Assembly (NCBI GenBank): GCA_963848815.1
Contig: CAWKFY010000019.1
Coordinates: forward strand, 13,286-77,285
Direction of reading: 5' to 3'
DNA length: 64,000 nucleotides
DNA from: an uncultured Chloroflexia bacterium
GTDB taxonomy: Bacteria; Chloroflexota; Dehalococcoidia; GIF9; UBA5629
This document shows, one piece after another, positions 4,928-45,719 of this stretch. The stretch's first letter is position 1; every line of letters begins with the position of its first letter. Made by a program: the position numbers and the translations under genes. The notes beneath the pieces were generated by a model. The model had not been told where the DNA came from, did not search any database, and saw only the letters and a program-made list of their open reading frames with translations.

Positions 4928-5040
4928 ACGGCTTTGTAAGCTAAAGCACTTCTACCGCATGACAGCGCGGGAATGAAGTGATAAAATCGTTCAGCCTTTA
5001 TAAGCGGACCTCTAATGGTCCGCTTACAAATTAAAAAGAC

Positions 5041-5799
5041 ATGGTAAATCCGATTCTGATCAACCTTTTCCTGCTGGTGCTGGTGCTGGTGCTGGCCCAC
5101 ACGGTCGAGACTGTGCTGGGATTTGGCGCGACCACCATAGCCCTGGCACTGGGCATCTTTATACTGCCGCTAAATACCCTGCTCCCCGTGCTGGTCATAC
5201 TCGGCCTGCTGCAGAGCGCCTGGCTGGTGGCGCGCTGGGGACGCCACATCCAGTGGCGCGTGCTGCTGCTCAAGATATTGCCCGGGGCGGTCATAGGCCT
5301 GGCCATAGGCATCTACTACAGGACGCAGGTGGCGAGCTATACGCAGCTTCTCATACTGTTGGGCGTCTTCATCATGGCCGTATCCATAATGGAGACAATT
5401 CTTATTTACAAGACCAAAGCGGCGGGAGGCAGCCTTCCCTGGTATATAGGCTGGCCGATCCTGATATTTGGCGGGATATTCCACGGCATCTATGCTGCAG
5501 GGAGCCCGATGATCATCTATTACTCCAGCCGCGAATTTAAGGAACCGGCGGATTTTAGGGCCACGCTCTCTACTCTATGGCTGATCCTTAACATCACCCT
5601 GCTGGTGAGCCTGCATTCTACGGGGCAGATAAACGTCGATACACTCACCACCACGGGCATCCTACTGCCGGGACTTATCGCCGGCATAGTTCTGGGCAGC
5701 TACATGAAGTTCAGAGCTCTGGTTTTCAAAGTGCTCATCTATGCCATCCTGTTTGTGGCGGGCCTGCTGCTCTTCATTCAGCAGGTGAGCAGTCTCTGA
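5041..5799 (+). CDS. TauE/SafE (DUF81) family sulfite/anion exporter-like membrane protein
   Basis: Polytopic hydrophobic protein of 252 aa with a duplicated 4-TM architecture. Confidence 0.7.
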   Translation: MVNPILINLFLLVLVLVLAHTVETVLGFGATTIALALGIFILPLNTLLPVLVILGLLQSAWLVARWGRHIQWRVLLLKILPGAVIGLAIGIYYRTQVASYTQLLILLGVFIMAVSIMETILIYKTKAAGGSLPWYIGWPILIFGGIFHGIYAAGSPMIIYYSSREFKEPADFRATLSTLWLILNITLLVSLHSTGQINVDTLTTTGILLPGLIAGIVLGSYMKFRALVFKVLIYAILFVAGLLLFIQQVSSL

Positions 5800-12090: not shown

Positions 12091-12876
12091 TCAGTTTTTG
12101 ACTTCACCCCGGATGCCGATGATCGTCTCTTTGAAGGGGATATCCTTGCCGCTGGCCAGAATGGCCTGCATGGCCATACGTGTCAGCCCTGAGCAGCAGG
12201 GGACCTCCATGCGGAGCACATTCAAGCTCCTAATATCCGATTGCCGCAGTATTTCCGTCAGCTTTGCTAGGTGCGCTTCGTAGTCGTCCAGCTTGGGGCA
12301 GGCTACCAGCAGGGCGTGTCCCTGTAAAAAGTCGGTATGGAAGCCTCCCAGTGAGAAGGCAGTGCAGTCGGCCGCAAGCAATACATTGGCTCCCTGAAGA
12401 AAAGGCGCTTTGGGCGGCACCAGTGTAAGCTGAACGGGCCAGTGCCCCAGGGCCGAAGGCTGGCCCATTTTGGTAGCCGGCTCGGCACCGGCGGCCCTCT
12501 CTTTAAACTCCGAGACGTTCGATGAAGAGCAGCCGCAGGGCAGGGTGTCCTTCTTCTCGAACTCTTGCACCCTGGCCGACGGGCAGCCGCAGGCCGGCTC
12601 AGAACTCAGGGCAGGCTTTTTCTCCAGGTGCTGTTGGACGGCCTTTTCATCGAAAGCCTCTGCTTCCCGTTCCTCGATGCTGATGGCCCCCTGCGGGCAT
12701 TCCGACAGGCAGGCGCCCAGGCTGTCGCAGTACCTCTCCGATACCAGCCTGGCTTTTCCGTCAATAATCTGCAGCGCCCCTTCAGCGCAGGAAGGTATGC
12801 ATATGCCGCAGCCGTTGCATTTGGCCTCGTCGATTTTGACTATCTTCCTCTTGATTTTAGTTGCTGTGTTTTCCAT
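12091..12876 (-). CDS. 4Fe-4S dicluster domain protein with an additional Cys-rich central and C-terminal region
   Basis: CNGCGICIPSCAEGA and CDSLGACLSECPQGA ferredoxin motifs, then CGCPS / CGCSS / CCSG. Confidence 0.75.
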   Translation of the reverse strand: MENTATKIKRKIVKIDEAKCNGCGICIPSCAEGALQIIDGKARLVSERYCDSLGACLSECPQGAISIEEREAEAFDEKAVQQHLEKKPALSSEPACGCPSARVQEFEKKDTLPCGCSSSNVSEFKERAAGAEPATKMGQPSALGHWPVQLTLVPPKAPFLQGANVLLAADCTAFSLGGFHTDFLQGHALLVACPKLDDYEAHLAKLTEILRQSDIRSLNVLRMEVPCCSGLTRMAMQAILASGKDIPFKETIIGIRGEVKN

Positions 12877-13126
12877 TTCTTTCCTCCCGGAGCTTGCTTC
12901 GCTGTTGCTTCAACTTTTGATACATCTCCGTGCCCAGGCATTGCTCGGCATACCCGCAGTACTCGGCGCAGGAGTTGATGTTATTGAAGACGGCCAGGCC
13001 GCAGCCCGGGCAGTCCACCTTCATATCGGTGGAGAAAAGCTCCACCTCGGCCCCGCACTGAGGGCACTTCTTTAGTGTGACGGTTGGAGTACCCTGGGCT
13101 ATATTGCCCGGACAGCGGAAAATCAT
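12857..13126 (-). CDS. Small zinc-ribbon / Cys-rich protein (CPQCG...CPGCG...C-x3-C-x5-C)
   Basis: 89 aa. Overlaps the start of the downstream Fe-S gene by 20 nt, which suggests translational coupling. Confidence 0.5.
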   Translation of the reverse strand: MIFRCPGNIAQGTPTVTLKKCPQCGAEVELFSTDMKVDCPGCGLAVFNNINSCAEYCGYAEQCLGTEMYQKLKQQRSKLREERNGKHSN

Positions 13127-13223: not shown

Positions 13224-14006
13224 TTATTGACGGGATGGGCCTTCGCTGACAGCACGAAGGCTATTTTTGTCGAGTACTGTTATCCTGCCGCGTGCGGACT
13301 TGATCACGCAACTCTCTTTGAGACGGGCCATGACGCGGATGGTGGTCTCGATGGTGGTGCCGGCCATGTCCGCGATCTCCTGTCGAGTGAAGGGCAAGTC
13401 GGGGCCGAATTTAGATGAAAGCATGAGCAGTATGCCCGCTATGCGCTGCTCCACGCGCTCTCCCGCCAGGTCGCGCAGGCGTGCCAGGGCGTCACGCAGC
13501 CTGCCGCCCAGCATGTTGATGATCTTGAGCGCCACCTGCGGATTTCCGGCTAAGAACCGGGCGAAACCTTCTTTATTAACAGCCAGGACACTGGCAGGTT
13601 CGGTGGCTTGCGCAGAAGCCGGGTAGGGCTTGTCCTCGAAGGCCGCCACCTCGCCGAATACATCGCCCGGCCCGAAAAAGGCCACCACAAACTCCCTGCC
13701 GGAGGGAGCCATCTTGGAGACTTTTATACGCCCTTTGTCCAGGATAAAAAAATTATCGGGGCTGTCGCCTTCCCAGAAGACATATTCGCCGGGCTTGAAG
13801 TTTTTTTCCGATGCGATCCCAGCCAGCTTGGCTAACTCGCCTTCAACCAGTCCCGAGAAAATCGGGGCCGACTTCAGTATCTTGATTTTTGATGTTTTAT
13901 CCAGCCCACCGCCCCCTGTATTACTCCCCGAATCTGCGCAATAGCGTGTAAAGGGCGTCCGCGCCGAACTCGAGCGCCGATACTGGCACACGCTCATCGG
14001 CGGCAT
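13224..14006 (-). CDS. Crp/Fnr family transcriptional regulator
   Basis: cNMP-binding beta-roll (GEYVFWEGDSPDNFFILDKGRIKV) plus C-terminal HTH (TRQEIADMAGTTIETTIRVMARLKE). The true start is probably downstream of 14006, because the listed ORF overlaps the upstream peptidase by 86 nt. Confidence 0.8.
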   Translation of the reverse strand: MPPMSVCQYRRSSSARTPFTRYCADSGSNTGGGGLDKTSKIKILKSAPIFSGLVEGELAKLAGIASEKNFKPGEYVFWEGDSPDNFFILDKGRIKVSKMAPSGREFVVAFFGPGDVFGEVAAFEDKPYPASAQATEPASVLAVNKEGFARFLAGNPQVALKIINMLGGRLRDALARLRDLAGERVEQRIAGILLMLSSKFGPDLPFTRQEIADMAGTTIETTIRVMARLKESCVIKSARGRITVLDKNSLRAVSEGPSRQ

Positions 14007-27731: not shown

Positions 27732-28385
27732 ATGGATTCCGTTCTTATTATGGTTCGTTACCCGGCTGCGGGCAAGGTAAAAACGAGATTGGCCGCAGCT
27801 ATGGGAGAGGAGAAGGCTGCCGACTTCTACCGCATATGTGCCCACCGCATTTTACGGGAAATGGGAAACCTGCCGGATAGTATCGGCAAGTATATCTTTT
27901 ACACAGACAGCAGGGACCGGCAGGGTATGATGGAGTGGGCCGGACCGGGTTTTATGCTGCGGGAACAGGTCGGAGTTGACCTGGGGCAGCGCCTGACCAA
28001 CGCTTTTAAAGAAGCCTTTGCCGATGGGGTGGGGAAAGCCGTTATTCTTGCCAGCGACGTACCAGATATCTCGGCCGACATCATTAACGAGTCCCTGCAG
28101 GCGCTGGACCATTACGATCTTGTCCTGGGACCATGCCATGATGGTGGCTATTACCTGTTAGGGATGAACGCAGCGCATCCACAGCTTTTCCAGGGTATTC
28201 CCTGGAGTTCTCCTGAGGTGACTGAGAGGACGCTGGCGCGAGCCGGCAAGCTAGGATTAAAAATATTCATGCTGCCTGCACTGATCGACATCGACGACTT
28301 CGCCGACTTCAAAGCGTGGCTATCGCAATGTGGCGAAACGAAGGGGGCGCTGGCCGATTTCCTAGCCGGTTTTTCTGCAGTGTGA
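27732..28385 (+). CDS. DUF2064 / TIGR04282-like glycosyltransferase (arsenosugar-biosynthesis-type)
   Basis: MDSVLIMVRYPAAGKVKTRLA...DVPDISADIINESL...HDGGYYLLG. Confidence 0.7.
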   Translation: MDSVLIMVRYPAAGKVKTRLAAAMGEEKAADFYRICAHRILREMGNLPDSIGKYIFYTDSRDRQGMMEWAGPGFMLREQVGVDLGQRLTNAFKEAFADGVGKAVILASDVPDISADIINESLQALDHYDLVLGPCHDGGYYLLGMNAAHPQLFQGIPWSSPEVTERTLARAGKLGLKIFMLPALIDIDDFADFKAWLSQCGETKGALADFLAGFSAV

Positions 28386-28424
28386 CTATAATTAGTTAAG
28401 GCAATTATTTTGGAGGGGAATGAT

Positions 28425-28757
28425 ATGAGCTACTATGAGCCTGAAGACCTTAAACGGTTCGGAGAAATAGGTGATTTCAGGAAGGACCTGGCCGATAAAT
28501 TTTTTTCTTACTATGGCGCAAGCACTTCCACCGAAGGCGCTTTGACGGTGCGCGAAAAGGCCCTCATCGGGCTGGCCGTGGCGCATGCAAAGGAATGCCC
28601 TTATTGCATAGATGCCTTCACCACCAAGTGCCTCGAGGCCGGGGCCAATCCGGACCAGATGACCGAGGCGGTCCACGTAGCATCGGCAGTCGGCGCCGCC
28701 GCTATACTGGTCATGGGAGTACAAATGCATAATGCCATGAAACGCAGCGGGGTCTAG
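28425..28757 (+). CDS. Carboxymuconolactone decarboxylase / AhpD-like peroxidase-like protein (arsenosugar-cluster type)
   Basis: AHAKECPYCIDAF CxxC motif. GGAGGGG SD precedes the ATG at 28425. Confidence 0.75.
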   Translation: MSYYEPEDLKRFGEIGDFRKDLADKFFSYYGASTSTEGALTVREKALIGLAVAHAKECPYCIDAFTTKCLEAGANPDQMTEAVHVASAVGAAAILVMGVQMHNAMKRSGV

Positions 28758-28758
28758 A

Positions 28759-29749
28759 ATGGACCAGGCAGAATTTAATTTCACAGCCACGCTGGCACGG
28801 CACCATCTGGAGATAATGCCTGTATCTCTGGACACGATGCAATTAAATATCACCAGACAATGCAACCAGGCGTGCGTCCACTGCCATGTCGACGCTTCGC
28901 CGCAAAGAAATGAAGCGATGGGCCGGCCCGTTATCGAGCGCTGCCTGGAAATCCTGGCCGCGCAACGACAGGATAAGCATCGTGGATATAACCGGCGGCG
29001 CACCGGAGCTACATCCGCAATTCCGTGACTTGGTGGAAAAAGCCGCTAAACTGGGGAAAAAGGTGATGGTCAGGCATAACCTGACTGTGATGCTGGATGG
29101 TAATCCCCAAGACGGGGAAAAGATGGATGACCTGCCGCAATTCTTTGCGGAGAACCGGGTGGAGATCATTGCTTCATTACCCTATTACCAGGAATTTTTT
29201 ACCGACAGGCAGCGCGGCGCAGGCGTATTTGAAAAAAGCATTGCCGCCCTTAAGCTGCTAAATAAAGAGGGCTATGGCAAGGATGGCAGCGGGCTTATAC
29301 TCAACCTGGTCTACAACCCGGCCGGGGCTTTTCTTCCCGCCTCCCAGGCCTCGCTGGAGGCCGACTTTAAACGAGAGCTGCTTACACGCTACGGCATAGT
29401 TTTCAACCGGCTCTACGCTCTGACCAATATGCCGGTAAACCGCTTCAGGGCACAGCTTGAACGGTCGGGCATATACGGGGACTACATGCTGAAACTGAAG
29501 AGCGCTTTTAACCCGGTTGCTGCGCTGAACATGATGTGCCGCAGCCAGATGAGTGTAGACTGCGACGGAAAGATATATGATTGCGATTTTAACCAGATGC
29601 TGGGGTTGCAGTCAGCCATCCCGGAGGGTGCTGTGACGGTCTTCAATTTTGACTGCCATGAATTCTTGAAGAGGCGCATCGTTTTCGGAGCGCATTGTTT
29701 CGGCTGCACCGCAGGCGCCGGGAGCAGTTGTGGCGGAGCCATTACATAG
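28759..29749 (+). CDS. arsS: ArsS-like radical SAM protein (arsenosugar biosynthesis type); frameshift near 28955
   Basis: Pieces are 28759..29028 and 28886..29749. CNQACVHC radical SAM motif. Reading frames rejoin at ...EILAA|NDRISIVDITGGAPELHPQF. Confidence 0.75.
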
Positions 29750-40281: not shown

Positions 40282-41615
40282 TCAAGCTTCAAGTGCAGCA
40301 GACTTGGGCGGCGCGCAGAAAAGTATCAGCATCAGGCCGATCAATGCACCTGCACAGCCTATGATGACGGCGGCGGCGTAATTCCCATTGATGTCAAAAA
40401 TGAATCCGGCTATAGCAGGCGCAGAATACTGAAAAATCGACCCGACAGGATTGCTGATCCTGCTCATTTTGGGAAATGATTCAATCCCGAAATAGTTGCC
40501 TATTATCAGGGGTTGGCAAACATAGGTGGCCCCGAATCCAAAACCGGTAAAGAGAGGGTACAGGTATACGGCCCAAAGTGTTTCTTTGGAGGCCATCCAG
40601 AAAAGGGCGCCCCCAATTAAAAGAGAGACTCCGGCCAAAGATATAATGAAGCGCGGCTCCATACGGTCTCCCATTAAGGAAACGCTCAGCCTTCCGATGA
40701 TGCTGAAAGCCAGAATAAGACCGTAAACAAATGCGGGCTGCAAAACCAATAAGGGGTCCGAGGGCGAGAATCCCCGGTCTTGCAGATGGGCAGGTGTTTG
40801 GGTAAGTATGGTTTGCCATAAATAGAAAATAAGTCCTATCGATATCACGATCATCCAGAGTGAACGGGTTCGAATTGCATCGCTGAAACGCCAGTTCACG
40901 GGCGAACGGTAGGTTTTGATCAACCGTTGTTTGGGCTGTTTAATAGCTTCATGCAATTGGTCCGGCGATAGGCCGTCAGGGTGTTGACCGAGGTCTTCCG
41001 GCCGGTTGCGGACTGCCAGCATCGCTATGACCGCTCCGGTGAAACAGGCCAGGGCGATCACATACCATCCTATGTGCCAGTCTCCCCCTGAATTGACGAT
41101 GGCGGCGTTTATGATCTGGGGGTAGACAAAACCGCCTATAGCGCCTCCACCCAGCACCAGGCCCATAGCCAGTGCCCGGTGCACATTGAACCACAGCATC
41201 ACCAATGCCTGGACGGGACGACGGTGCCGAAGGATACTCCCAACCCTACAAAGAAGCAGATGATCCAGTAGGCAACCGGATAGATGTGGCCGCCGAGAGT
41301 CAGTGAAATGTGACCCAGCAGGGCGACCAGGATGCTGGAAATTGCCGCTATAACGGCGCCGATCGCCAGAGTTTTTCTTGGCCCGAAGCGGTCTATCATC
41401 CAGGGTACTAGCAATGCCCCTATGCCCAGCATTAAGCCGATGATGGAATATCCCAGATTGATCTCGCCGCGCGGCCATTTCAGGCTGTCGGCCATAAAGG
41501 TGTTAATCACCGGGGGGCCGTAAAGAGCAAAGCCGATGGGAATGGAATAGACCAGGCAAAGGACCGGCAGCAGCCACCATCCGTAGAAACCGCGGTCCCG
41601 CATTTTATCGGCCAT
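40282..41615 (-). CDS. MFS transporter (oxalate/formate antiporter-like family); frameshift near 41210
   Basis: Pieces are 41199..41615 (N-terminal) and 40282..41478. Confidence 0.75.
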
Positions 41616-41801
41616 CTGTTAATTTACCGGTGTAATTTACAGGACTATTATGATTGCCCATGAGTTTAGCTGGGTATTATAACATCGCCTGAAATATTTG
41701 GATAACGGGCAGGAGTATCGTCAGCCTGCCAAATATTGTAGCGGGGGCGGACATTTAATACGGTAAAGTTTGTGGCCATATGCATCTTCACTAATATGCA
41801 G

Positions 41802-41817
41802 TTGCGCAAAAGCGCAA
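41802..41817. promoter_or_regulatory. Palindrome TTGCGC-AAAA-GCGCAA, 94 nt upstream of Cys-rich paralog A; conserved GTGTTAAATT box 44 nt downstream
   Basis: Read directly from the sequence. The identical half-sites and spacing recur upstream of paralog B. Confidence 0.5.
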
Positions 41818-41910
41818 TTGCTTACTAAGTATTACGGCGGATGCTGTGGCCTCAGTATGGTGTTAAATTATATTCAACTGAAAGATGATGGAAGACAGGA
41901 GGCAAAGAAA

Positions 41911-42252
41911 ATGGCGAAGACATTAGAAAAAATTGAAACTCAAGCTGAACCGAAGGAAGACCGGGGATTCAATTTCTGGACTGATAAGACCCCATGCTGG
42001 GAGGTCTCCCACTGCACGAATATGATCAAGGGCGAGTGCCCTGCATTTAAGTACCAGTTCCTGCCGTGCTGGGAAATAGAAGGGACTTACTGCAAACTGG
42101 ATGACTACGGTTCCGATGGTAAAGACACCAGCATTTGCGAGGTCTGCCGTGTATACAAGACCTACGGTGACGGGAAACCGATCCAGTTGAAGTTGATGGG
42201 ACGTGGGATCAACACGTCGATACAGATGCTCGAAAAAACAGCAGTAGCCTAA
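41911..42252 (+). CDS. Small 7-Cys protein, paralog A (113 aa; PCWE...GECP...LPCWEIEGTYCKLDD...SICEVCRVYK)
   Basis: AGGAGG SD 8 nt before the ATG. Followed directly by an intrinsic terminator. About 65% identical to paralog B over the core. Confidence 0.6.
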   Translation: MAKTLEKIETQAEPKEDRGFNFWTDKTPCWEVSHCTNMIKGECPAFKYQFLPCWEIEGTYCKLDDYGSDGKDTSICEVCRVYKTYGDGKPIQLKLMGRGINTSIQMLEKTAVA

Positions 42253-42280
42253 CCTCCTGAGATATCATTAAGCGCTTCAA

Positions 42281-42310
42281 TCCCTCCCCGCTGAGGGGAG
42301 GGATTTTTTA
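42281..42310 (+). terminator. Rho-independent terminator (TCCCTCCCC-gctga-GGGGAGGGA + T6)
   Basis: Read directly from the sequence, 29 nt after the stop codon of paralog A. Confidence 0.7.
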
Positions 42311-42339
42311 TTTACCTTTCAGCATAGGCCGGCGGACAC

Positions 42340-42355
42340 TTGCGCTTTTGCGCAA
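42340..42355. promoter_or_regulatory. Palindrome TTGCGC-TTTT-GCGCAA, 97 nt upstream of Cys-rich paralog B; nested in ACTTGCG...CGCAAGT
   Basis: Read directly from the sequence. A GTGTTAAATT box recurs at the same offset as for paralog A. Confidence 0.5.
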
Positions 42356-42451
42356 ACGCAAGTTAAGCGTTAAAACGGATGGCGGTAAGCAAGGCCTGTG
42401 TTAAATTGGTAACGTAAACAAACAAACTGACCGATAAAGGAGGCAAATCAA

Positions 42452-42787
42452 ATGGCTGAGACTAAAGTAAATGTGAAGAAAACCACCGGGGTAAAGGAAG
42501 AGAGCGGCGTAAATTTCTGGACCGGTAAGGCGCCCTGTTTCGAGCTATGCAATTGCCCTGAGATGATTAAGGGCGAATGCCCGGTTGAGAAATATCAGTT
42601 CCTGCCGTGCTGGGAGATCGAAGGGACCTATTGCAAACTGGATGACAAGGGAGCAACGGGCCGTGATACCAGCATCTGCGAGACTTGCAGGGTTTACAAG
42701 AAATATGGCAACGGTGAACCCATCGTGCTGAAGCTGTTCGGCAAGGGCATTGACACTCACCTCAGGGAACTCGATAGAGTTGCGTAG
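42452..42787 (+). CDS. Small 8-Cys protein, paralog B (111 aa)
   Basis: AAGGAGG SD; a conserved core shared with paralog A; its own terminator downstream. Confidence 0.6.
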   Translation: MAETKVNVKKTTGVKEESGVNFWTGKAPCFELCNCPEMIKGECPVEKYQFLPCWEIEGTYCKLDDKGATGRDTSICETCRVYKKYGNGEPIVLKLFGKGIDTHLRELDRVA

Positions 42788-42815
42788 TAGACAGCAACTC
42801 AGGTTTTAGTTTGCA

Positions 42816-42846
42816 GAAGGGGGCCGATATTGAGTCGGCCCCCTTC
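42816..42846. terminator. Hairpin GAAGGGGGCCGA-tattgag-TCGGCCCCCTTC between convergent genes
   Basis: 12-bp perfect stem, read directly from the sequence. Confidence 0.6.
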
Positions 42847-42858
42847 TCTATTTCAACT

Positions 42859-43380
42859 TCATTCATCGATGGTTTTGGCCCGGTCCAGCAAATCCAACTT
42901 CTCTCGAAGGTCCCTTAGATTGACCACATCGTCCCGATTGTAGCGCAGCAGCAGGTCGAGGGACTTCTCGTCGTTATAGGCACAATATTTTTTCCACAGC
43001 CATACAGCATGCCAGCCGGTCAGTCCTTCGGTCTCGCGCGATATGCCCAGCCGGTTGAGCACGACTTTTAATCCGCCTTTTAACATATGCTGATGACAGC
43101 GGTGCATCAGGTCGCTGTGCAGGTACATCCGGTTCAGGTCAGGGCCCAGCCGATGGCGTATAAAGGGCAGGTCGAAGCGCTCCCCGTTATAGGTGTAGAG
43201 ATAGTCCGAACCTTCCAATACCTCCAGCAGCCGGCGGCGTGTCAAGTCCTCATTATAAAGCTGTACCAGCGTGCCCTCATATTCATTACAGAAATAGATG
43301 CCGATCACGGTAATGCTGCAATTGCCGCTATAAAGGCCGGTTGTCTCGATATCCAGGTAGGCGTCAGGGAATCCGATCAT
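42859..43380 (-). CDS. RNase H-like / DEDD-type exonuclease domain protein (YprB-like)
   Basis: YLDIETTGL exonuclease motif I near the N-terminus. Confidence 0.65.
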   Translation of the reverse strand: MIGFPDAYLDIETTGLYSGNCSITVIGIYFCNEYEGTLVQLYNEDLTRRRLLEVLEGSDYLYTYNGERFDLPFIRHRLGPDLNRMYLHSDLMHRCHQHMLKGGLKVVLNRLGISRETEGLTGWHAVWLWKKYCAYNDEKSLDLLLRYNRDDVVNLRDLREKLDLLDRAKTIDE

Positions 43381-43436: not shown

Positions 43437-44291
43437 TTACCCGGCGCCGTCTTTCATACGGGCATTGACGGCACTCAGCTTGGCGCAAAACAACAATATC
43501 CAGGCAGCGGTGTAGCTGAAGGCCAGCAGCGCAAAGACTGCACCCAGCGAGCCGTAGACGAGATTATACTCGTCGAAATTATTGATATACCAGATGAAAA
43601 GGAACCTTATGAGCTCAAATACTATCGCTGCTATCAATGCCCCCATCCAGATATCTCTCCAACGGGGCCTTGCTGCGGGGACAAATTTGTAAAGGACGAG
43701 GATGATGGCGAAAGCCAGGAAGGCGCTTATAGCCGTGGTAACTGTGGTGGAAAGCGTTGTACTGTTGAGGAACGGGAAAACCTCGCTGTGGAAATTTCTG
43801 AACTGCAGAATGCTGAGGGCGGTGGATATCCAGATATAAAGGGTCAGCACAATGAAGGCTCCGATCATCATGGCGATATCCATGGCCCCGCCTTTGAAGA
43901 AGGAGAGCTGCTTCTTAACGCCCCATGCCCTATCCAGCGACTCACGCACGGCGGAGAAGAATGACGACGCGCTCCAGATCAATATCAACAGGGCAATGAT
44001 CCCGGTTTCCAGACGTGCGTTGACCAAATCGCGCAGCGTTGTCAAAACTATGTTTCTGGCCATGGGAAGCATGCCTCCGAGCACGTTAACGACACTCTGT
44101 TCGAATTCGGGAGACTCCATGATGAACCCCGCTATGGAGATCAGCGCAAGGGCAAAGGGAAAAAGGGAAAACAAAAGGTTGAACGCCACGGCCGCCGATA
44201 ACAGATTGCCGTTGTCCATATCGAAGCCGGTATAGGTCCTGGTTAGCAGGCGTACCACCCTGTTTTTCTTCAGGCGTTCCAGTATTTTCAT
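43437..44291 (-). CDS. YihY/BrkB family inner membrane protein
   Basis: Polytopic 284-aa protein with the family signature LSAAVAFNLLFSLFP. Confidence 0.8.
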   Translation of the reverse strand: MKILERLKKNRVVRLLTRTYTGFDMDNGNLLSAAVAFNLLFSLFPFALALISIAGFIMESPEFEQSVVNVLGGMLPMARNIVLTTLRDLVNARLETGIIALLILIWSASSFFSAVRESLDRAWGVKKQLSFFKGGAMDIAMMIGAFIVLTLYIWISTALSILQFRNFHSEVFPFLNSTTLSTTVTTAISAFLAFAIILVLYKFVPAARPRWRDIWMGALIAAIVFELIRFLFIWYINNFDEYNLVYGSLGAVFALLAFSYTAAWILLFCAKLSAVNARMKDGAG

Positions 44292-45719
44292 ATTCTCAGT
44301 CCTTTAAGATAGGCGTTGGCCGCATGTACACCGCACATGCCGTGCACGCCGGCGCCGGGCGGGGTCGAGGCGGAGCACAGGTATACGTCCTCGAGAGGGG
44401 TGCTGTAAGGGATGATGCGGCAGGTCGGCCGGCAGAATATTTGCTTCAGGTTCTGGGCGCCCCCGACTATATCTCCGCCGACCAGGTTGGGATTTTCGGC
44501 TTCCAGTTCGGCAGGACCGGATATGTGCTTTTGGAGGATCAAATCTTTAAAGCCCGGCGCGAAACGCTCAATCTGCGATTCTATGGCTTCCGTCATATCG
44601 ACGGTACAACCATTGGGTACGTGGCAGTAGGCCCAGGCCGTATGCCGTCCGGCCGGTGCGCGAGAGCTATCGAAAAGGCTGGGCTGAGCCAGGATGACGA
44701 AAGGCCTGGGATGGACCTTACCCTGCCAGGCCCAAAGCTCCGCCTCTGCGATCTCGGCAAAGGTCCCTCCGATATGCACGGTCCCCGCCGAATTGCAGTC
44801 CCCGGCCTTCCAGGGTATGGGGCCGGACAGCGCCCAGTCGACTTTAAATACGCCGGGCCCGTAATGGTAATTCTGCAGGGACCGCTTATAGCCGGCGGGC
44901 AGGCGCGGGCCGAAGACTTGGATTAGCTGTTGCGGAGAAGTGTCGAAGAATATGGCCTTTGCATCCGGCAGGTCGGATGAAGAATTTACCTTGTGGCCTG
45001 TTATGAGTTTGCCTCCCAGTGATGATAAGCGGCGTGCCAGGGCGGACGAGATGCTTGCCTGCGCCTCCGGCAGGGATTGGCCAGCCGGCGGCGTGCCCGG
45101 TAACGCTCAGGACCAGGCCGAAAGCAGCCGACGGCCTCTTATTCAAAGGCAGGACGGAGTGGGCGGAAAGGCCGGCCCAGAAACCCCTTGCAAGGTAGCC
45201 TTTGAAATAGTCCCCGCAAAGGCTTTCGGCGGAGTGAAGAGCACGCATTCCGAAGCGTGCAAGCAGCAGTGGATGGTGTGCCGAGCGCATAGTACCGAGC
45301 AGGTAGCCGCTTAATTCGCCGAACCGTTCTACAAAGGGCCGGACCAATTTGGTATAGGCCGGTCCGTCGCCTTCCAGGGTCAGCGCCGTCTCTTCTAACG
45401 AGGCCTTAAGCAGGGCGGCGCGTCCATCCTCGAAGGGATGTGCCATCTGGATGGGTGGGCGAATCCACTCCACGCCGAGGCTTGAGAGAGGCAACGATGA
45501 AAAAAATGGAGACACGGCTGCCATGGGATGGACAGCCGATCCCACATCGTGGCGGAAGCCGGGCAGCGTCAATTCCGCCGTGCGGGCGCCTCCTCCCGCT
45601 TCCGCTGCCGCCTCCAGAACGACTACCTTGAGGCCGCGCCCGGCCAGCGTTATGGCTGCGGCCAACCCGTTGGGCCCTGAACCTATAACTGCGGCGTCGT
45701 ATTCGCAGGATCTTTTCAT
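44288..45719 (-). CDS. Phytoene desaturase-family NAD(P)/FAD-dependent oxidoreductase (CrtI-like); frameshift near 44950
   Basis: N-terminus DAAVIGSGPNGLAAAITLA (Rossmann fold). Pieces are 44886..45719 and 44288..44779, with an intervening in-frame segment found by hand translation. Confidence 0.7.

Follow-up and report, generated by a model that had tools for sequence, protein, structure and literature searches.

Two tandem, head-to-tail genes, here called A and B, lie in a 64,000-nucleotide stretch of DNA from an uncultured bacterium of the Chloroflexota class Dehalococcoidia (contig CAWKFY010000019.1; this whole stretch is referred to as the window, and positions are given in it). They encode small Cys-rich proteins, and both are preceded by the same palindrome. 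Gene A (41911..42252, + strand, with its ATG at 41911) encodes a stand-alone two-CW-domain protein of 113 amino acids (aa) with seven Cys (C29, C35, C43, C53, C61, C76, and C79), and gene B (42452..42787, + strand) a stand-alone two-CW-domain protein of 111 aa with eight Cys. The two products, of 12-13 kDa each, align without gaps over 111 aa at 61% identity and 77% positives (BLASTP, E 5e-53). A carries both of the CW dipeptides that characterize the domain, and B has CF at the first of these positions and CW at the second. Their isoelectric points of 5.4 and 6.6 are acidic to neutral, as is the family median of 6.6. The original prediction, made from the sequence of the window, had described tandem paralogs encoding Cys-rich mini-proteins; the paralogy was confirmed by the BLASTP alignment, and all of the features that it described are present in the sequence, bar small corrections. 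A 71-aa antisense open reading frame (ORF) also runs across gene B (42545-42760, − strand) and has counterparts in many related loci; most likely it is not a gene, and it recurs because the sense gene is so strongly conserved.

Both genes appear to form transcription units of their own, as had been proposed, each having promoter-like elements, a ribosome-binding site (RBS), and a terminator hairpin. The Shine-Dalgarno sequence AGGAGG stands 8 nt 5′ of the ATG in either case (41897..41902 for gene A and 42438..42443 for gene B, + strand). Gene A ends in an intrinsic terminator (42279..42311, + strand) with an 11-bp stem (42279-42305), a 5-nt loop and a T-run, which was called by a terminator scanner and folds at −22.1 kcal/mol (z −4.0). 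The hairpin of gene B (42815..42847, + strand), placed between the convergent genes B and 42859-43380, has a 14-bp G+C-rich stem and folds at −30.8 kcal/mol (z −6.2), and it was missed by the scanner because its T-tail (CTATTTC) is weak. In terms of the features of rho-independent terminators, gene A has a hairpin and a U-tract, and gene B a strong hairpin with a weak U-tract. The hairpins had been placed at 42281-42310 and 42816-42846; their existence stands, and their coordinates are now 42279-42305 (plus T-run) and 42815-42847. Family-wide, a terminator-like hairpin is found no more than 110 nt past the stop codon in 91 of 103 genes, and monocistronic units are therefore the rule.

The first description of these proteins could not assign them to a named family. 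A named family does apply, the two-CW domain superfamily NF045718, which is itself uncharacterized. It is the sole NCBIfam match of both proteins (A, 27.2 bits, E 3.8e-6; B, 22.5 bits, E 1.1e-4), and both span positions 2-77 of the 80 in the profile. Moreover, a profile of the family built around A and B aligned with 21 two-CW domains embedded in sensor proteins at a probability of 99% (hhalign, E 4.7e-18) with the seven Cys in register, and among its matches are proteins above the NF045718 cut-off (P0185, 78 bits; P0202, 91 bits; P0121, 39 bits). Because of this profile-profile match and the register of the Cys, A and B are on sequence grounds divergent stand-alone members of the superfamily. 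The domain is a module of about 60 residues with seven invariant Cys in the arrangement CW-x4-C-x7-CP...CW-x6-C-x14-C-x2-C; the invariant residues of the window family include these seven Cys (C29, C35, C43, C53, C61, C76, and C79), two Trp, P44, and G58. The family shares the seven-Cys pattern of NF045718, CW...C...CP(A/S)(Y/F)...CW..GT.C...C..C.VY, but differs from it in a conserved N-terminal FW-x2-K, in a C-terminal extension of about 25 aa (G-x-G-x-PI-x-LKL-x-G-x-GI), in the CF of B, and in being a stand-alone, Dehalococcoidia-specific, multi-paralog clade with a promoter module of its own. Searches with Pfam gave no family for either protein even at E up to 1, no DNA-binding domain was found with Pfam or NCBIfam at the same threshold, and Pfam and NCBIfam profiles showed no similarity to ferredoxin, rubredoxin, WhiB or metallothionein families. 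A match to a well-characterized family such as the ferredoxins or rubredoxins, which would have told against the initial description, was thus not found, NF045718 being the only library match. Likewise, no sequence in the PDB was matched by the family profile.

A database search returned 324 homologs. Among the 120 listed, lengths ranged from 100 to 179 aa and identities from 53 to 83%; these proteins had no Pfam domains and were mostly unnamed, and all those with a source name came from Dehalococcoidia or Chloroflexi metagenome-assembled genomes (MAGs). Across species-representative genomes, 199 relatives were found. One NCBI record calls a 112-aa family member (P0058) a 'MerR family transcriptional regulator'; the window proteins have no detectable DNA-binding domain of the MerR or any other type.

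An indication of what the domain does comes from the proteins to which it is fused elsewhere. Searching the family profile against 1.84 billion representative proteins yielded 303 clusters at E up to 1e-3. Among the 148 representatives inspected, 92 were no longer than 160 aa and 35 had at least 300 aa, and 21 of the long ones were examined for domains. Recognized domains were present in 14 of the 21, and all 14 carried a signalling one: MCP signalling domains in eight proteins (several with HAMP, Cache or CZB), HisKA/HATPase histidine kinase modules in three, GGDEF or GGDEF-EAL in two, an HD-GYP-type HD domain in one, and PAS only in one. The remaining seven had no confidently recognized domain; among them is P0240, which gave eight matched stretches in the profile search. 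In the Cache-type chemoreceptors (P0223, P0229, and P0259) the two-CW domain is placed between the periplasmic Cache and the MCP signalling domain, roughly where HAMP would usually be expected to sit. Records with two-CW as an additional domain of signalling proteins include ones from Nitrospirae and Omnitrophota. The two-CW domain looks like a sensor module because it is fused in other organisms to chemoreceptor, histidine-kinase and cyclic di-GMP (c-di-GMP) modules. Additionally, P0202 combines two-CW with the zinc-binding domain CZB, and four proteins carry two copies of two-CW.

Upstream of the two genes lie the palindromes, dyad A (TTGCGCAAAAGCGCAA; 41802..41817), which has AAAA between the arms TTGCGC and GCGCAA, and dyad B (TTGCGCTTTTGCGCAA; 42340..42355), which has TTTT between the same arms and is the exact reverse complement of dyad A. 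Dyad A holds the core TGCGC-N4-GCGCA and has an imperfect extension to 41798-41821. That the shared palindrome is a conserved cis-element, as first suggested, is well supported: exact matches to TTGCGC-N4-GCGCAA number two in the 64 kb against 0.02 expected, none of 100 shuffles reached two, and the same dyad recurs at the same place 5′ of orthologs and paralogs at 79 genome loci and 105 metagenome loci. When up to two mismatches are allowed, the count is 2 against 4.8 expected, which is no enrichment, and the signal of the dyad thus lies in its exactness and its position. The conserved unit is not the TTG-N10-CAA that had been put forward; it is the core TGCGC-N4-GCGCA, which is perfect (10/10) at 171 of the 223 box-anchored sites, the outer left base being T, A or G. 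Among 17 distinct variants of the dyad there is no compensatory change, mutations in the arms are single-sided, and A..A is frequent as the outer pair. A-type genes mostly have AAAA at the centre (19 of 22) and B-type genes TTTT (25 of 26). Given the lack of compensatory change, the frequent A..A pair and the AAAA or TTTT centres, the pattern fits a putative sequence-specific DNA site for a symmetric dimer, and not an RNA stem. Two other roles for the dyad were considered and rejected. It is not a terminator of the upstream gene, as dyad B lies 3′ of terminator A and has no T-run after it, nor is it an operator of the divergent MFS gene, as its fixed distance is kept to the two-CW gene and not to that neighbour. 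Rfam gave only two sub-threshold chance matches in 41500-43000.

The dyad is the first element of a promoter module of rigid geometry. To describe it, 79 loci from species-representative genomes (all of them Dehalococcoidia/Chloroflexota MAGs) and the window were combined, giving 105 family genes, whose aligned upstream regions have the consensus TGCGC-tttt-GCGCAA ... tTAAGC.TtA.ggCGGATGg ... aTGtTAAATT. The module, of about 70 bp, consists of TGCGC-N4-GCGCA, 8 nt, TAAGC, 7 nt, CGGATG, 17 nt, and TGnTAAATT. These gaps are exactly 8, 7, and 17 nt in 73 of 73 fully parsed modules, which come from the 79 loci, in dozens of species-level genomes, and from the window; the distance from the last element to the ATG is variable, at 38 to 52 nt. 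CGGATG stands 5′ of 102 of the 105 family genes; of the three without it, one is partial and two come second in tight operons. In gene A, the TAAG box follows the dyad after 8 nt and reads CTAAGT (41825..41830, + strand; family consensus TTAAGC), the CGGATG box is at 41838..41843 (+ strand), in the place expected of a −35 element (about −38 to −33), and the extended −10-like element TG-n-TAAATT (TGTTAAATT) is at 41861..41869 (+ strand), which would put the transcription start near 41875-41878. The corresponding elements of gene B are TTAAGC at 42363..42368, CGGATG at 42376..42381, and TGTTAAATT at 42399..42407 (all + strand), with a predicted start near 42413-42416. A box GTGTTAAATT shared by the two promoters (41860-41869 and 42398-42407) had been noticed at the outset; its presence holds, and its distance from the end of the dyad is 42 nt, not 44.

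The base at n of TGnTAAATT is T in 46 cases, A in 10, G in 7, and C in 6, and this occurrence of all four bases is the signature expected of an extended −10 element, for which TGnTAAATT is a candidate. A simple promoter scanner did not call the element, having found no −35 match. Neighbouring oxidative-stress operons in the same genomes carry TGcTATAAT, and extended −10 promoters thus appear to be used in these organisms. Assuming that transcription starts about 7 nt after the −10 hexamer, the dyad centre, which is about 54.5 nt upstream of that hexamer, would be at about −66.5, the TAAGC box at about −51 to −46, and the CGGATG box at about −38 to −33. Because no recognizable sigma-70 −35 hexamer was found in the family promoter, dependence on an activator is suggested. 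By eye, a sigma-54 or alternative-sigma reading of the boxes was rejected, there being no GG-N10-GC and the 7 nt between TAAGC and CGGATG being too short for −35/−10 spacing.

The module is nearly confined to this family. The flanking DNA, 824 kb in all, has the dyad and boxes almost nowhere but upstream of family genes, and the 64-kb window has no full module other than those of genes A and B. When metagenome contigs were scanned independently for the boxes alone (TTAAGC-N6-8-CGGATG-N16-18-TGNTAAAT), there were 113 matches, of which 81 had the exact dyad no more than 40 nt upstream. Of these dyad-positive matches, 75 precede a two-CW gene, five are cut by a contig end, and one precedes something else. 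Among the 32 without the dyad, one is before a two-CW gene, five are cut by a contig end, and 26 are in unrelated DNA and look like chance occurrences. A single target other than a two-CW gene was found for the module, at L099:113-355, on a metagenome contig, where a complete module (dyad 113-126, TGGTAAATT 171-179), in the same RBS context, drives a desulforedoxin-like ORF of 41 aa. The ORFs that come after it are NADH-oxidase/CoADR-like, rubrerythrin-like and hemerythrin-like. The identities of the L099 ORFs come from reading translations by eye and from one weak BLAST match to the rubrerythrin cluster. A weak resemblance to the module also occurs in the window at 4942-4987 (TAAAGC...CGCATG-N17-TGATAAAAT; the match with two mismatches spans 4956-4987), 5′ of a gene for a TauE/SafE-family exporter (5041-5799), and is probably just an extended −10 promoter.

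Dehalococcoidia genomes hold at least four to five paralogs each, and clustering by neighbours revealed three recurrent settings. In Type I, to which the window belongs, the A-B tandem lies between an MFS transporter gene and an RNase H-like gene; this arrangement is syntenic in 28 other loci, and the A and B orthologs are kept distinct. In Type II (about 23 loci), a single paralog ending in a strong terminator is followed on the same strand by an oxygen-defence operon encoding rubrerythrins, a flavin reductase-rubredoxin fusion, an ODP/flavodiiron-type protein and desulfoferrodoxin (all by Pfam), and also a Cu-ATPase-like protein recognized by eye. This operon has a highly conserved element of its own, TGTGACTTTnATTACTT, 16 nt before a perfect extended −10, TGcTATAAT (L047:6422-6463 and 22 other loci, L029-L070), which we regard as a second, distinct candidate operator for oxygen-defence genes. 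TGTGACTTTnATTACTT contains a Crp-like TGTGA half-site. A sequence with two mismatches to it (TGTGACTATAATTAGTT) is present in the window at 28381-28397, directly 5′ of a 115-aa ORF with a CPYC motif (28410-28757); the next ORF, 28886-29749, seems to have no N-terminus, with stops in the upstream frame. In Type III (nine loci), a longer paralog keeps TTAAGC-N7-CGGATG and has no dyad. It is flanked on one side by a divergent histidine kinase gene and a gene for a Response_reg+GerE regulator, and on the other by NuoE/NuoF-GltD/NuoG-like genes, and Type III loci occur in genomes that also hold the tandem pair. At Type III loci such as L071 (6394-6422), the NuoE-like gene is preceded, at a distance of only about 30 nt, by a terminator-like hairpin and its T-run, through which the NuoE/NuoF-GltD/NuoG-like operon may be controlled by attenuation or leaky termination. 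The 64-kb window itself contains no homologs of NarL-type regulators, histidine kinases, rubrerythrins, flavodiiron proteins, superoxide reductases or NuoE.

Taken as a whole, the locus is best read as a set of co-regulated, redox- or oxygen-linked sensor mini-proteins under a family-specific promoter whose dyad would be bound by a regulator likely of the NarL/FixJ/ComA type, a reading to which we would give about an even chance. The fusions of the domain to signalling modules lead us to infer that A and B work in the cytoplasm as small proteins whose seven Cys ligate a metal or Fe-S cofactor. They would respond to redox state or oxygen and pass the signal on by contact with other proteins. 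A dimeric DNA-binding protein would occupy the dyad, near −66.5, and also contact the TAAGC and CGGATG boxes, and all of the paralogs would be switched together, most likely by oxidative or redox stress. The metal-binding redox or sensor role that had been ascribed to the proteins is thus plausible, being backed by the signalling fusions and by adjacency to oxidative-stress genes. As for the dyad binder, geometry and sequence make a NarL/FixJ/ComA-type helix-turn-helix (HTH) regulator more likely than a Crp/Fnr protein. The closest characterized box documented here is the site of ComA. ComA of Bacillus subtilis is a NarL/FixJ-type response regulator that binds as a dimer through a tetrahelical HTH, and its box, TTGCGG-N4-CCGCAA, lies upstream of the RNA polymerase site and is accompanied by additional downstream elements (PMC4797271). 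The window palindrome TTGCGC-N4-GCGCAA has the same 6-4-6 geometry, matches the ComA box at five of six bases per half-site, and is likewise upstream of the core promoter. It differs at position 6 of the half-site and belongs to another organism and another regulon, and the TAAGC and CGGATG boxes of the family are not ComA-type repeats.

Several alternatives concern what acts at the dyad. The palindrome had been taken for a Crp/Fnr operator, with A and B in the regulon of a Crp/Fnr regulator encoded at 13224-14006. That regulator is real (it has cNMP_binding and HTH_Crp_2 domains), and Crp/Fnr regulators often control redox genes. The dyad also has points in common with Fnr and Crp operators, being a dyad-symmetric site of 14-16 bp upstream of a promoter, with a 14-bp core of 5-N4-5 form as in Fnr boxes. 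The Fnr box is TTGAT-N4-ATCAA (TTG-N8-CAA) and the Crp box TGTGA-N6-TCACA, however, and the half-site here is TGCGC, so that its G positions mismatch both, while the outer T/TTG and CAA that suggested the likeness are variable. Furthermore, the regulator gene lies at a distance of 28 kb with no dyad near it, a search of the flanks (about 6 kb) of the family genes at 184 loci turned up no Crp/Fnr homolog, and the ComA box is a closer match. Control of A and B by this regulator is therefore quite improbable. The regulator gene (13224-14006, − strand) adjoins a Cys-rich 89-aa ORF (12857-13126) and a gene for a 4Fe-4S dicluster protein (12091-12876), which are more plausible local targets of the window Crp/Fnr protein than A and B. 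A different idea is that the palindrome works as an RNA hairpin in a transcribed leader, as an attenuator, a processing site or a protein-binding stem-loop. The dyad can fold into a hairpin of 6-10 bp with a tetraloop, and copy A does so at −16.8 kcal/mol (z −4.6), but copy B is no better than shuffles (z −1.2). The 17 variants without compensatory change, the AAAA and TTTT centres and the frequent A..A outer pair also speak against a stem, as do the extended −10-like element found 3′ of the dyad at invariant spacing and the lack of an Rfam match, and we regard an RNA function as very improbable. The third possibility is autoregulation, in which the two-CW mini-proteins, alone or as an A/B heterodimer, would themselves be redox-sensing transcription factors or RNA-polymerase co-factors in the manner of WhiB-like (Wbl) proteins. 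Autoregulation at the module would explain why the module is nearly restricted to the genes of the family (75 of 76 interpretable dyad-positive metagenome matches, and likewise in the 824 kb of flanks). CGGATG lies where a −35 element would, the family is small, Cys-rich, multi-paralog and monocistronic, and one record carries the 'MerR family transcriptional regulator' name. Wbl proteins of Actinobacteria are redox and nitric oxide sensors that act with RNA polymerase, and the functional analogy extends to small size, Cys-richness, a cytoplasmic location, several paralogs per genome, and mostly monocistronic genes. The two families nevertheless differ in phylum and in having seven conserved Cys as opposed to the four of Wbl proteins, and they share no sequence similarity (no Pfam match). 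Neither Pfam nor NCBIfam shows a DNA-binding domain in A or B at E up to 1, no domain backs the 'MerR' name, both proteins have an acidic to neutral pI, the homologous domains are add-ons of signalling proteins and not DNA binders, and the regulon is not definable by sampling of flanks. Hence, we consider autoregulation of this kind improbable.

The remaining alternatives concern the proteins. A and B might be redox or metal proteins with no part in signalling, such as abundant small electron carriers, thiol or metal buffers or antioxidants that work like rubredoxin, desulforedoxin or metallothionein, induced together with oxygen-defence enzymes. With seven to eight Cys in about 110 aa they would have enough for one 4-Cys and one 3-Cys cluster, their genes have strong RBSs and terminators, paralogs adjoin genes for rubrerythrin, flavodiiron-like, superoxide-reductase and Cu-ATPase-like proteins, and a desulforedoxin-like gene lies behind the same promoter in L099. 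Rubredoxin, desulforedoxin and 7Fe ferredoxins resemble the family in being small Cys-rich metalloproteins tied to the oxygen defence of anaerobes, and the L099 ORF adds to that resemblance. No homology to them is detectable, however, and their Cys spacing is different; neither is there similarity to metallothionein families. The two-CW fusions are to signalling modules and not to redox enzymes, and the long retention of distinct A and B orthologs and of four to five paralogs per genome favours specific partners over bulk buffering. On balance a non-signalling role is unlikely. It has also to be asked whether A and B are precursors of ribosomally synthesized, post-translationally modified Cys-rich peptides, since such precursors are typically multi-copy and small Cys-rich ORFs occur here as multiple tandem or paralogous copies with a variable N-terminus. 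In none of the three conserved contexts of the family is there a recurrent gene for maturation (radical SAM enzyme, cyclase, protease or exporter), no signal- or leader-like conserved N-terminus is present, and the Cys-rich core is homologous to an intracellular domain of signalling proteins, all of which makes a peptide precursor extremely improbable.

The reading of A and B as co-regulated sensors under a NarL/FixJ/ComA-type regulator has its own difficulties, and the following observations weigh against it. Both proteins fall under the curated NF045718 cut-off of 35 bits. Structure models are of low confidence, with a pLDDT (predicted local distance difference test) score of 72 for A (47-72 across five models) and 49.5 for B. 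In the literature on 'two-CW' and on Cys-rich cytoplasmic chemoreceptor sensors, we found nothing relevant and no reported function of the domain. The neighbours of the A-B tandem in the window, an MFS transporter, an RNase H-like protein and a BrkB-family protein, are unrelated. At Type II loci, a strong terminator separates the paralog from the oxidative-stress cluster, whose operator is TGTGACTTTnATTACTT, and because of this terminator and this different operator the link is one of adjacency, and not of co-transcription or a shared site. On the promoter side, a dyad centre at −66.5, as placed from the predicted start site, is a non-canonical position for a class I activator. The candidate NarL-type proteins, a Response_reg+GerE regulator and a histidine kinase, flank the dyad-less Type III class, and the region upstream of the regulator's own gene has no dyad either. 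The Type III regulator is a lead, and not a result, as a binder of the dyad, because that class of paralogs does not have it.

The two-CW domain has been catalogued only as a hidden Markov model, and this locus shows its expansion into a highly conserved stand-alone family in uncultured Dehalococcoidia. The promoter architecture, with invariant spacing in 73 of 73 modules, is among the most rigid likely to be found by comparison, and both the family genes and their promoter touch the oxygen-defence genes of these anaerobes. In the literature searched, we did not find the stand-alone Dehalococcoidia clade, the A/B tandem, the promoter module or the link to oxygen defence described. Should the domain prove to be a redox sensor, a function could also be assigned to the extra domain seen in chemoreceptors, kinases and c-di-GMP enzymes of other phyla, the Nitrospirae and Omnitrophota records among them. 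A bolder proposal, which we think fairly improbable, is that two-CW proteins of the stand-alone kind form a new class of sensors for redox state or oxygen, with an Fe-S or metal-thiolate centre, and that they act as transcription co-factors, with RNA polymerase at CGGATG or with a NarL-type protein at the dyad, and thereby autoregulate the paralog family. If that were true, they would be a Dehalococcoidia counterpart of the WhiB-like proteins, on a fold without a solved relative, and several anaerobic phyla would have in two-CW an unrecognized cytoplasmic module that feeds redox signals to chemoreceptors, histidine kinases and c-di-GMP enzymes.

Two genes near the tandem are interrupted in the window. 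The MFS gene (40282-41615, − strand) is split into the overlapping ORFs 41199-41615 and 40282-41478, and its orthologs are intact at about 444 aa (e.g. L027:347-1681); the split is a frameshift, reflecting either a pseudogene or an assembly indel. A gene for an FAD/NAD(P)-type oxidoreductase (44288-45719, − strand) is likewise split, into 44886-45719 and 44288-44779, with intact orthologs of about 476 aa (L005:7685-9115). Together, the two splits suggest assembly indel errors or recent gene decay.

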